From assembly GCF_035938995.1 (NCBI RefSeq), contig NZ_DASZGI010000329.1, positions 54,535 to 118,534 on the forward strand: DNA of 64,000 nt. Direction: 5' to 3'. The stretch comes from Actinocrinis sp. Lineage in GTDB: Bacteria > Actinomycetota > Actinomycetes > Streptomycetales > Catenulisporaceae. The position numbers and the translations under genes are program-made. Shown here piece after piece: positions 22,385-26,120 of the stretch. How positions within the stretch are numbered: the stretch's first letter is position 1; each line of letters begins with the position of its first letter. The notes beneath the pieces are model-generated. The model worked only from the letters and a program-made list of their open reading frames with translations. It was not told the origin of the DNA and ran no database searches.

Positions 22385-23290
22385 TTATACGCGGTCCGCT
22401 GCGATCAATAGATAGTGGAAGCTGCCTTCGCGGTACGCGGTCAAGAAGGCCTCTTCGATACCCGTGGCCACCGAGGACTGCGCCCGCAGCTCCCAGTAGG
22501 GGATCGTCGCGGGCGTCAGGTCCAGTACGGTGATCGGCGTCAGGCCGTTGGCGGCCAGCGCGCGGAAGTAGGCGCTGCGCGGGTGGATGTTGCACGTGTA
22601 GTGCTCGTCTATCCGGCTTACCGCCTTGGACCGCAGGCCCGTGACGTCGTTGGAACACCCGGTGATGCAGACGTACCGGCCGCCGTGGGGGAGCAGCCGG
22701 GCGAATTCCGCGTAGAGCTCGTTCAGGTCGACGTACATCGTCGTCTCGTTGGTCCAGATGCCGCGCTTCGAGCCGGACTCGAATCCGGTGTCGAGCATGT
22801 TGCGGAAGTGGAAGCGCACCACGTCGCTCACGCCGCGCTCGACGGCCCGGTCGTTGGCGAAACCGGCCTGGTACTCGGAGATGGTGACCCCGTCGACGCG
22901 GCAGCCGAACCGGTAGTGCGCCATCAGGCTGGTGCCGCCGCGGCCGCAGCCCGCGTCGAGCAGCCGGTCGCCCGGTCCCACCACGCCGAGGTTGTCGAGC
23001 AGGACGTCGGCCTGCGCGCTCTCCAGCCGGTGCAGCTCCTCGATGATCCGCTGGTCGCGCTCGTCCGGCGACACTTCCAGGACGGCCGGGTCGTAGTCGC
23101 CGAGGCCGTAATGGTGGTGGTAGAACCCGTCCACCTCGCCGAGCCGCAGATTGACCGGGTCCTGCGTGTGCGTGTCCCAGTACTGCGCGACAGCCCGCTG
23201 ATACGCGGTGCGCAGCACCGGGGAGAGCTGAGACAGGGACTGCGTCACGGGCTGCGTCACGGGCTGCGTGTCGGGCGGGGACTGCGTCAT
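22385..23290 (-). CDS. geranyl diphosphate 2-C-methyltransferase (2-methylisoborneol pathway)
   Basis: 301 aa from ATG 23290. SAM motif LLDAGCGRGG. Recognisable along the whole length as a GPPMT (SCO7701-type): YWDTHT, FYHHHYG, IWTNETTMY. The start overlaps the MIB synthase stop (ATGA). Confidence 0.9.
   Translation of the reverse strand: MTQSPPDTQPVTQPVTQSLSQLSPVLRTAYQRAVAQYWDTHTQDPVNLRLGEVDGFYHHHYGLGDYDPAVLEVSPDERDQRIIEELHRLESAQADVLLDNLGVVGPGDRLLDAGCGRGGTSLMAHYRFGCRVDGVTISEYQAGFANDRAVERGVSDVVRFHFRNMLDTGFESGSKRGIWTNETTMYVDLNELYAEFARLLPHGGRYVCITGCSNDVTGLRSKAVSRIDEHYTCNIHPRSAYFRALAANGLTPITVLDLTPATIPYWELRAQSSVATGIEEAFLTAYREGSFHYLLIAADRV
23240..23275 (-). repeat. 12-bp tandem repeat (CTGCGTCACGGG x3, third copy degenerate) at the 5' end of the methyltransferase gene
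   Basis: Read directly from the sequence. It encodes TQPVTQPVTQS, and a fourth partial copy includes the ATG. Confidence 0.8.
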
Positions 23291-24522
23291 CGGGTCGACT
23301 CCTTTTCGCGGGCCGTCGCGTAGTGGGCGGTGGTGCGGTGCCATTCGTGGTTGCCGCCGAGCCAGGCCCACACCCCGGCCAGGAACCGAGCCAGCGCGGG
23401 CGAGCCGGCGGCGGCCAGCGCGGCGGCTTCATGCTCGTAGGTGCGGACCAGCTCGTCGTGCAGCGCTGCGGCGCGCCGCACTGCCTCGCCGGGCGAGCAC
23501 TGCTCCTCGGCGGCGATCAGCGTGGGCAGGTTGTAGTCGTACTGGGCGCCGCGCTGCTCCTTGCTCATCGAATACAGGTCGTTGACGAGCGTGGTGGCCA
23601 GGCCCGCCATCAGCACCGCCCGGCGCACCGGGGGAGCGCCGTACTCGGTCGCTGACAAGTGATAGCCGCCGACGACATCGATCACGGCGATGGTTGGCAT
23701 GAAGCTGTTCTGCTGGCGTTCGGCGAGGTACTGCCACACGGGTGGGACGAAGTCGGTGCGGCGCCAGGACCCCTCGGTGTTGTAGCCGTTGAACAGCGCG
23801 GCCAGTTCGAGACGCAGCCGGTCGACCTGTCCAGGGGTCGCGTACCGCGCGAGATGCCCGAGCGCGGAACCCAGCGCGACACGAACCGGGTCCTCGCGCA
23901 ACGCCGCGTCCAGCGCCGGCTGACGCTGCGCCCCGATCACCGGCGGATCGATAGTCGCGTACGCCAAGCCGAGCCGGGCGCCCAGCAGGTCGGGCCGGGC
24001 GCCCTCGGACTCGTCATCGCAGTACGCGTCGTCGGTAGCCCACTCGGCGAGCGCGCATTTGGCGGCGGCCAGCAGCCGGTCCGGGTCCTCGCTCTCGGGG
24101 TGGACGAGCATGATGAAGCGGCCGAAGTTCGCCTCCCGGACGTGGTCGAGGCTGTCCGGGTAGAGGCCGATCTCCTTGGCCCACGCGAGGAGCCGCTCGT
24201 TGACCAGCTCGCCGAGCGCCGGGTCGTCGCGCAGCGCGGGCGGGGAGTAGAGCTCGGGCACTGTTCCGTTCTGGCTGGCTCCGTTCTGCGCGGCCTGGTC
24301 AGGCTGCGCGCCGCCGGTGCCGGGCCGACCGAGCGGGGCGCGGTCGGCCCGAGGTGGAACGGGACGCAGCGACGAGGTGCCCAAGCCGCGCGGCCCGCCG
24401 AGGACCGGCTTCGCGGGCCGAAGTGAGGCCGGTGCCGAGGGCGGCGCGGCGAGCAGGGCGGCGGCCAGCGCGGCGGCTTCGTGCCGCGCGGGAGGCGCGG
24501 CCACACGGTTCAACAGGGACAT
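23287..24522 (-). CDS. 2-methylisoborneol synthase (class I terpene cyclase) with a disordered N-terminal extension
   Basis: 411 aa. Has the Asp-rich motif DDAYCDDE and the NSE triad NDLYSMSKE. The first 88 or so residues are an Ala/Pro/Gly/Arg-rich low-complexity tail. Confidence 0.9.
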   Translation of the reverse strand: MSLLNRVAAPPARHEAAALAAALLAAPPSAPASLRPAKPVLGGPRGLGTSSLRPVPPRADRAPLGRPGTGGAQPDQAAQNGASQNGTVPELYSPPALRDDPALGELVNERLLAWAKEIGLYPDSLDHVREANFGRFIMLVHPESEDPDRLLAAAKCALAEWATDDAYCDDESEGARPDLLGARLGLAYATIDPPVIGAQRQPALDAALREDPVRVALGSALGHLARYATPGQVDRLRLELAALFNGYNTEGSWRRTDFVPPVWQYLAERQQNSFMPTIAVIDVVGGYHLSATEYGAPPVRRAVLMAGLATTLVNDLYSMSKEQRGAQYDYNLPTLIAAEEQCSPGEAVRRAAALHDELVRTYEHEAAALAAAGSPALARFLAGVWAWLGGNHEWHRTTAHYATAREKESTR

Positions 24523-24595
24523 GGCGACCTGAAGTTCCTCTCCTGAAGATGAACGCCGTGCGCGAGCGCATCGGAACCTGCGTCAAGCGGCTGGA

Positions 24596-26014
<1,419 letters not shown>

Positions 26015-26120
26015 GTAAGGCCGCCTCCGAAACGGATCGAATTGCGCATCGTGCCTCTGCCTCCTAAGCAAAACGGGGCAGCAGGCGATCGCCAATGGCG
26101 CCCAGGGAGCACTTATGGCG

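Follow-up and report, generated by a model that had tools for sequence, protein, structure and literature searches.

The window, by which we mean the whole stretch of 64,000 nucleotides of Actinocrinis sp. DNA analysed here, carries three neighbouring genes that all lie on the minus strand and that encode, in the order of reading, an encapsulin shell protein of Family 2B, a terpene cyclase and a geranyl diphosphate 2-C-methyltransferase (Table 1). The shell gene matches the NCBI model NF041163 with 744 bits (cut-off 400), and its product combines an SrpI-like domain (PF19307) with an inserted cNMP-binding domain (PF00027). In its longest form the shell ORF would begin with TTG at 26095, the most upstream possible start; the NF041163 match, however, begins only at residue 48 of this form, and the ATG at 26014 yields a protein of 472 amino acids, which is the usual size. 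Within the 73 nt that separate shell and cyclase, a Shine-Dalgarno-like sequence (GGAGAGGA, 24536-24543) is located ahead of the cyclase ATG. At the other end of the cyclase gene, the longest methyltransferase ORF begins with GTG at 23371 and overlaps the cyclase by 85 nt, which is probably not the real start of this gene. Its likely start is the ATG at 23290, where an ATGA (23287-23290) joins the cyclase stop codon to the methyltransferase start codon, an arrangement that suggests translational coupling.

Table 1. Features of the shell-cyclase-methyltransferase locus, given as positions in the window.
Feature	Position	Strand	Details
Geranyl diphosphate 2-C-methyltransferase gene	22385..23290	minus	NF041943, 505 bits (cut-off 400)
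Terpene cyclase ORF	23287-24522	minus	411 aa
Class I terpene cyclase core	23287..24258	minus	residues 89-411 and stop codon
Hypervariable Pro/Gly/Gln/Ala-rich linker	24259..24363	minus	residues 54-88
Motif block VLGGPRGLGTSSLR	24364..24405	minus	residues 40-53
First SLRP segment, ASLRPAKP	24406..24429	minus	residues 32-39
Tail block 1 MSLLNRVAAPPARHEAAALAAALLA	24448..24522	minus	residues 1-25
Shell-cyclase spacer	24523..24595	minus	73 nt, read from sequence
Family 2B encapsulin shell gene (EshA/Sg Enc-like)	24596..26014	minus	472 aa from ATG

The gene content of the locus is not constant among its nearest relatives. In the closest public relatives, L135 (NCBI MAG GCA_037025045.1, with a cyclase that is 87% identical) and L134, no methyltransferase gene follows the cyclase. 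A GH79-like gene, which comes after the methyltransferase in the window, directly follows the cyclase in L135, and the shell protein of L135 lacks ~90 residues of the metal-binding/cNMP-domain region. These losses could reflect decay of the cluster or an artefact of assembly.

The cyclase itself is recognised by NF041167, the model for a 'family 2 encapsulin nanocompartment cargo protein terpene cyclase', with 483.3 bits (cut-off 400); the match spans residues 43-401 of 411 and thus starts at the GPRGLGT motif discussed below. Its core belongs to PF19086 (E 5e-27) and forms a single class I terpene cyclase domain, in which the Asp-rich motif DDAYCDDE (164-171) and the NSE motif NDLYSMSKE (314-322), both metal-binding, align with those of the S. 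coelicolor 2-MIB synthase. Compared with the structure of the latter (3v1x), the core scores E 3e-70 at ~45% identity. With ~45% core identity to characterised 2-MIB synthases, the enzyme is presumed to make 2-MIB or another C11 terpenoid, and the adjacent methyltransferase argues, as genomic context, for 2-MIB. Public relatives have been named 2-MIB synthase in some cases and camphene synthase in others, and most of the named relatives already carry the NCBI encapsulin-cargo name.

The cyclase core is preceded by a tail that corresponds exactly to codons 1-88 of the 411-aa enzyme (24259-24522, minus strand). An earlier, sequence-only reading of this region had described a disordered, Ala/Pro/Gly/Arg-rich N-terminal extension of roughly 88 residues and had placed the start of the conserved core at its end, and our analysis agrees with this description. 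Alanine (20), proline (14), glycine (10) and arginine (8) together make up 59% of the tail vs 38% of the core, and aromatic residues (F, W or Y), of which the core has 27, are absent from the tail. When the cyclase was modelled with AlphaFold2 using an alignment of 121 sequences, mean pLDDT values for consecutive blocks of ten residues were 60, 54, 56, 41, 38, 40, 45, 49 and 64 across residues 1-90, and at least 91 in nearly every later block, with dips (69, 68, 57) at one loop and at the C-terminal end. Given the jump in pLDDT after residue 90, we place the beginning of the fold at approximately residue 89 (PELYSPPALRDDP; boundary PELYSPP). Only weak helices, at residues 3-8 and 15-25 (pLDDT 54-60), were predicted within the tail. 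GC content at third codon positions is 0.82 in the tail, and GC by codon position does not single out a reading frame there; that the tail is translated is therefore concluded from conservation at the protein level. No other start codon lies between the upstream stop and the ATG at 24522, and M1, S2, L4 and R6 are conserved in homologues that start at the same position.

Alignments of 24 and of 121 homologues resolve the tail into two conserved blocks with hypervariable, indel-rich sequence between and after them. The second of these blocks contains GPRGLGTSSLR (residues 43-53). In the 24-sequence alignment, P44, G46, G48 and T49 are invariant and G43, S50 and R53 are at least 90% conserved; among the 121 homologues, all positions of GPRGLGTSSL (43-52) are invariant or nearly so. 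A consensus derived from 90 tails that were collected independently from genomes reads [LIV]LxGPxGLGT[SA]xLR, and the window sequence fits it at every conserved position. The pattern GP.G.GT occurred in 0.05% of shuffled tails (chance 5e-4), and the 6.7 Mb genome, when translated in all six frames, contains only six matches to GP.GLGT, three of which fall into terpene cyclases. The motif has been described by Andreas and Giessen (2021, 2024): GPTGLGT has been proposed as a targeting sequence of 2-MIBS-like cyclases and GPTGLGTSAAR as one of geosmin-synthase-like cyclases (PMC8346489), and the forms GPxGLGT and GPxGxGTxxL were described subsequently (PMC11550324). The same genome also contains GYDGPTGLGTP in two ORFs that have no relationship to terpene cyclases and are each longer than 1300 aa (G000:C70:65298 and C237:3187). 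There, GPTGLGT appears to be part of a folded domain, and its context should therefore be considered before the motif is taken for a cargo tag. Following the second block, the linker (residues 54-88) has accumulated many insertions and deletions and is unconserved even in close relatives; its pLDDT is 40-49 at residues 51-80 and 64 at residues 81-90.

The sequence-only reading had instead drawn attention to two similar S-L-R-P-x-x-P segments. Both are present, ASLRPAKP as listed in Table 1 and SSLRPVPP at residues 50-57, but the beginning of the latter is the end of the canonical motif, and the former survives, in the form [ST]L[RH]P, in relatives at 78-89% identity alone and becomes unalignable beyond them (its equivalent at locus L043 is ASLHLQRT). 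Neither does the repetition exceed chance: some repeated XXXX..X pattern was found in 5.6% and some repeated 4-mer in 39% of shuffled tails. We therefore rejected the pair as a meaningful repeat. Judged by these alignments, it is GPRGLGTSSLR, not the SLRPxxP pair, that is the conserved determinant of the tail.

The first conserved block comprises residues 1-25. Among the 24 homologues, it does not vary at S2 and R6 and is at least 90% conserved at M1, L4, A9, P10, A17 and L24, and MS[LM][LM]xR opens at least 90 of 120 homologue clusters, to which further clusters with GTG or shifted starts can be added. Its consensus can be written as MSLLxRxxAPxAxH[ED]xAxLxxALL. When cyclases were compared at their genomic loci, block 1 was present in 22 of the 40 enzymes with at least 49% core identity to the window enzyme vs none of the 63 more distant ones, and it was not found in the coelicolor/griseus-type tails of our survey. 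Several close homologues have short tails in which only GPTGLGT is kept and block 1 is missing, from which we conclude that the block is dispensable in some lineages. By conservation and predicted structure, residues 1-25 are a clade-specific, conserved and helix-prone block rather than low-complexity sequence.

If the tail is a cargo tag, its partner should be the shell protein encoded upstream. The best match of this protein among solved structures is 9bhu (E 3.8e-183 over 450 residues), a chain that is labelled only 'Nucleotide-binding protein'. We regard it as the S. griseus shell, given that it has L, L, F and Y at positions 264, 285, 430 and 441, exactly as reported for Sg Enc, in which L264, L285, F430 and Y441 form a hydrophobic pocket at the three-fold axis underneath the density assigned to the cargo-loading domain (CLD; PMC11550324). 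The corresponding residues of the window shell are L293, L314, F459 and Y470, and thus all four are identical.

To learn how regularly such tails accompany shells, we ran two NCBIfam models against 301 genomes from the window's order and 401 from its class and extracted regions of ~17 kb for 100 cyclase genes, which together with four further loci gave 103 uncut cyclases. Tail lengths were bounded by the stop codon of the upstream shell gene, as lengths counted from the first start codon in these high-GC frames were overestimates. A shell gene lies directly upstream and on the same strand in 87 cases, and 77 of these cyclases carry a motif of the GPxGLGT type; the ten that do not have mostly tails of ~30 residues of an LPGPP type, and short tails of this kind have also been described in the 2024 paper (PMC11550324). 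Eight further cyclases have a shell 2.3-2.8 kb away (two with the motif and six without), and in the remaining eight no shell was found within 8 kb, yet every one of them carries the motif. In all eight of the latter, the genome encodes a Family 2B shell elsewhere, and four of the eight are second copies in genomes whose first copy adjoins a shell. The tail is thus conserved in other shell-linked cyclases, in line with what the sequence-only reading had expected of a loading domain. At the level of genomes, 175 are cyclase-positive and nine are without a shell match, with no overlap between the two. Since 292 of the order's 301 genomes have a shell, co-occurrence at this level discriminates poorly, and since no cyclase-positive, shell-negative genome was found among the 301 searched, a comparison of tails with and without shells has no true negative set.

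A separate variation on this arrangement was seen in a genus of the window's own family (g176; L045 and L047-L051, for example L051:4264-8975), in which the order is shell, degenerate cyclase paralogue, GPP methyltransferase and intact cyclase. The degenerate paralogue keeps an RPHGLGTSAA motif in its tail, and in L051 its Asp-rich and NSE motifs are replaced by 'HLIETATLP' and 'RDLARPRPA'. The intact cyclase of these loci is without GPxGLGT; its tail is conserved as well but reads PPWEQxSPHW...WGDG[ST]H. It may be that the dead paralogue serves as an adaptor for loading.

The Actinocrinis genome itself encodes additional candidates for loading. We found one Family 2B shell gene in its assembly of 422 contigs vs three motif-bearing cyclases. 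One of the two other cyclases (L005; G000:C149:426-1634) is cut at its 5' end on a contig of 1.6 kb and shares 49% identity with the window enzyme; it appears as a second C11-type cyclase with GPGGLGTTAVR and its own methyltransferase downstream. The other (C304; L009/L011) is a two-domain, geosmin-synthase-like ORF of 776 aa that contains GGPTGLGTVTAG between its domains and EGPTGIGTGAS at the C-terminus. Because the assembly is so fragmented, a second shell gene may be missing from it.

Tail-driven encapsulation is known only for two terpene cyclases, the 2-MIB synthase of S. griseus and GeoA of M. xanthus (PMC11550324, PMC13739066), and the closest counterpart of the locus is the former together with its shell Sg Enc (EshA; Andreas and Giessen, Nat Commun 2024, PMC11550324). 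Both loci follow the same operon logic of shell, cyclase and GPP methyltransferase, both cyclases have a disordered, A/P/G-rich tail at the N-terminus with a GPxGxGTxxL motif, and the four pocket residues are the same in the window shell and in the S. griseus shell structures (9bhu/9bhv/9bi0, identified as such from these residues). The two differ in the length of the tail (88 residues in the window enzyme vs ~120 in S. griseus) and in ancestry, as the window cyclase, unlike the S. griseus enzyme, falls into a divergent 'branch 3'-like group. In addition, the window tail has the MSLLxR...ALL block, whereas the S. griseus CLD is described as conserved in the motif alone (PMC11550324). The 2-methylisoborneol synthase SCO7700 of S. 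coelicolor (3v1v/3v1x) shares the class I core with its Asp-rich and NSE motifs, and its alignment pairs GPRGLGTSSLRP of the window with S. coelicolor GPTGPGTTSLAP.

More distant systems show how the same theme can vary. In the geosmin synthase/MxEnc1/2 system of M. xanthus (Adv Sci 2026, PMC13739066), the targeting peptides are found in the stretch that joins the two cyclase domains and also at the C-terminal end, and the shell is built from two components, whereas the window has a single N-terminal copy and a single shell gene. Family 2A SrpI shells (Synechococcus elongatus, PDB 6x8m; Acinetobacter baumannii) have PF19307 in common with the window shell (E 4e-82 for 6x8m) but are without the cNMP-binding-domain insertion, and their cargo is a cysteine desulfurase whose N-terminal domain has a different set of motifs.

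Taken together, the upstream Family 2B shell, the predicted disorder, the canonical motif, the conserved pocket and the recurrence of this arrangement in ~90% of the shell-adjacent cyclases surveyed indicate that residues 1-88 are very probably the CLD of a Family 2B encapsulin system, as the sequence-only reading had proposed. [quoted passage not shown] The main contact would in all likelihood be made by GPRGLGTSSLR on the hydrophobic three-fold pocket of the upstream-encoded shell (L293, L314, F459 and Y470), with the A/P/G-rich remainder, and possibly the MSLLxR helix block as well, adding weak and redundant contacts, and the variable linker of 35 residues would keep the folded cyclase tethered in the lumen. 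2-Methyl-GPP would be provided by the neighbouring methyltransferase, and the enclosed cyclase would convert it to 2-methylisoborneol or a related C11 terpenoid.

This analogy is built on published experiments. In S. griseus, deletion of the CLD abolishes loading of 2-MIBS and a CLD-mNeonGreen fusion is loaded, and density for the CLD has been observed at the interior three-fold axis over F430, Y441, L285 and L264 (PMC11550324). In M. xanthus, loading of a GPTGLGTS peptide in vitro gave density at the three-fold pocket (PMC13739066). The segment containing the motif improves loading in S. griseus but is not strictly required (PMC11550324), which suggests several redundant binding modes driven by flexibility and hydrophobicity; to regard the motif as 'the' determinant of loading would therefore be too simple.

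We considered three other explanations of the tail, which even together we regard as improbable. It could serve as a solubility or stability element, or as a flexible spacer, of a free cytosolic cyclase, with loading into the shell being incidental or absent. Motif-bearing cyclases that reside away from any shell gene would fit this idea; however, a short and specific motif that several families have in common, although the remainder of the tail changes freely, is better explained by a binding site, the shell gene is directly upstream with its pocket residues conserved, and the experimental precedent in homologues supports loading (PMC11550324, PMC13739066). We therefore think such a role very unlikely. 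Less probable still is a regulatory role, in which the tail would not be a loading tag but would tune or inhibit the cyclase to which it belongs, for example by folding over the active site or through control of dimerisation. The conserved and helix-prone block 1 could be taken to point in this direction, but AlphaFold2 placed the tail with low confidence and so offers no sign that it contacts the core stably, several close homologues with short tails manage with GPTGLGT and without block 1, and encapsulation of the S. griseus enzyme did not significantly change its activity or product distribution (PMC11550324).

The tail might, finally, not exist as such, that is, it might be an artefact of annotation with the true start further downstream, or it might be a secretion signal. 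Long open frames do arise by chance in high-GC DNA, where the GC3 value of the tail is not discriminating, and an N-terminus rich in alanine and leucine superficially resembles a signal peptide. Yet more than 100 homologue clusters share the start position and conserve M1, S2, L4, R6 and the motif at the protein level, the ATG is preceded by the Shine-Dalgarno-like sequence, a twin-arginine motif is absent, and the would-be hydrophobic core is interrupted by R13, H14 and E15 and carries still more charges in homologues. On the strength of N-terminal conservation and the shared start position we rejected both the wrong-start and the signal-peptide readings, and we assign this explanation the lowest probability of the three.

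The cargo-loading reading accordingly places the tail within known biology: it is an ordinary example of a published cargo tag, for which the idea, the motif and the experimental proof have already appeared (2021-2026), and cargo-tag biology is already built into the annotation models of NCBI. What the locus illustrates is that an encapsulin cargo tag is a real functional element that can be recovered from raw sequence. Block 1 is a small addition to this knowledge and a candidate for a second loading determinant. It is conceivable, if rather doubtful at present, that block 1 constitutes a second, clade-specific element for shell binding or assembly, forming a bipartite tag with GPxGLGT, and that a single shell loads the three motif-bearing cyclases in trans. 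The Actinocrinis genome also offers a case in which one shell may serve several terpene cyclases.
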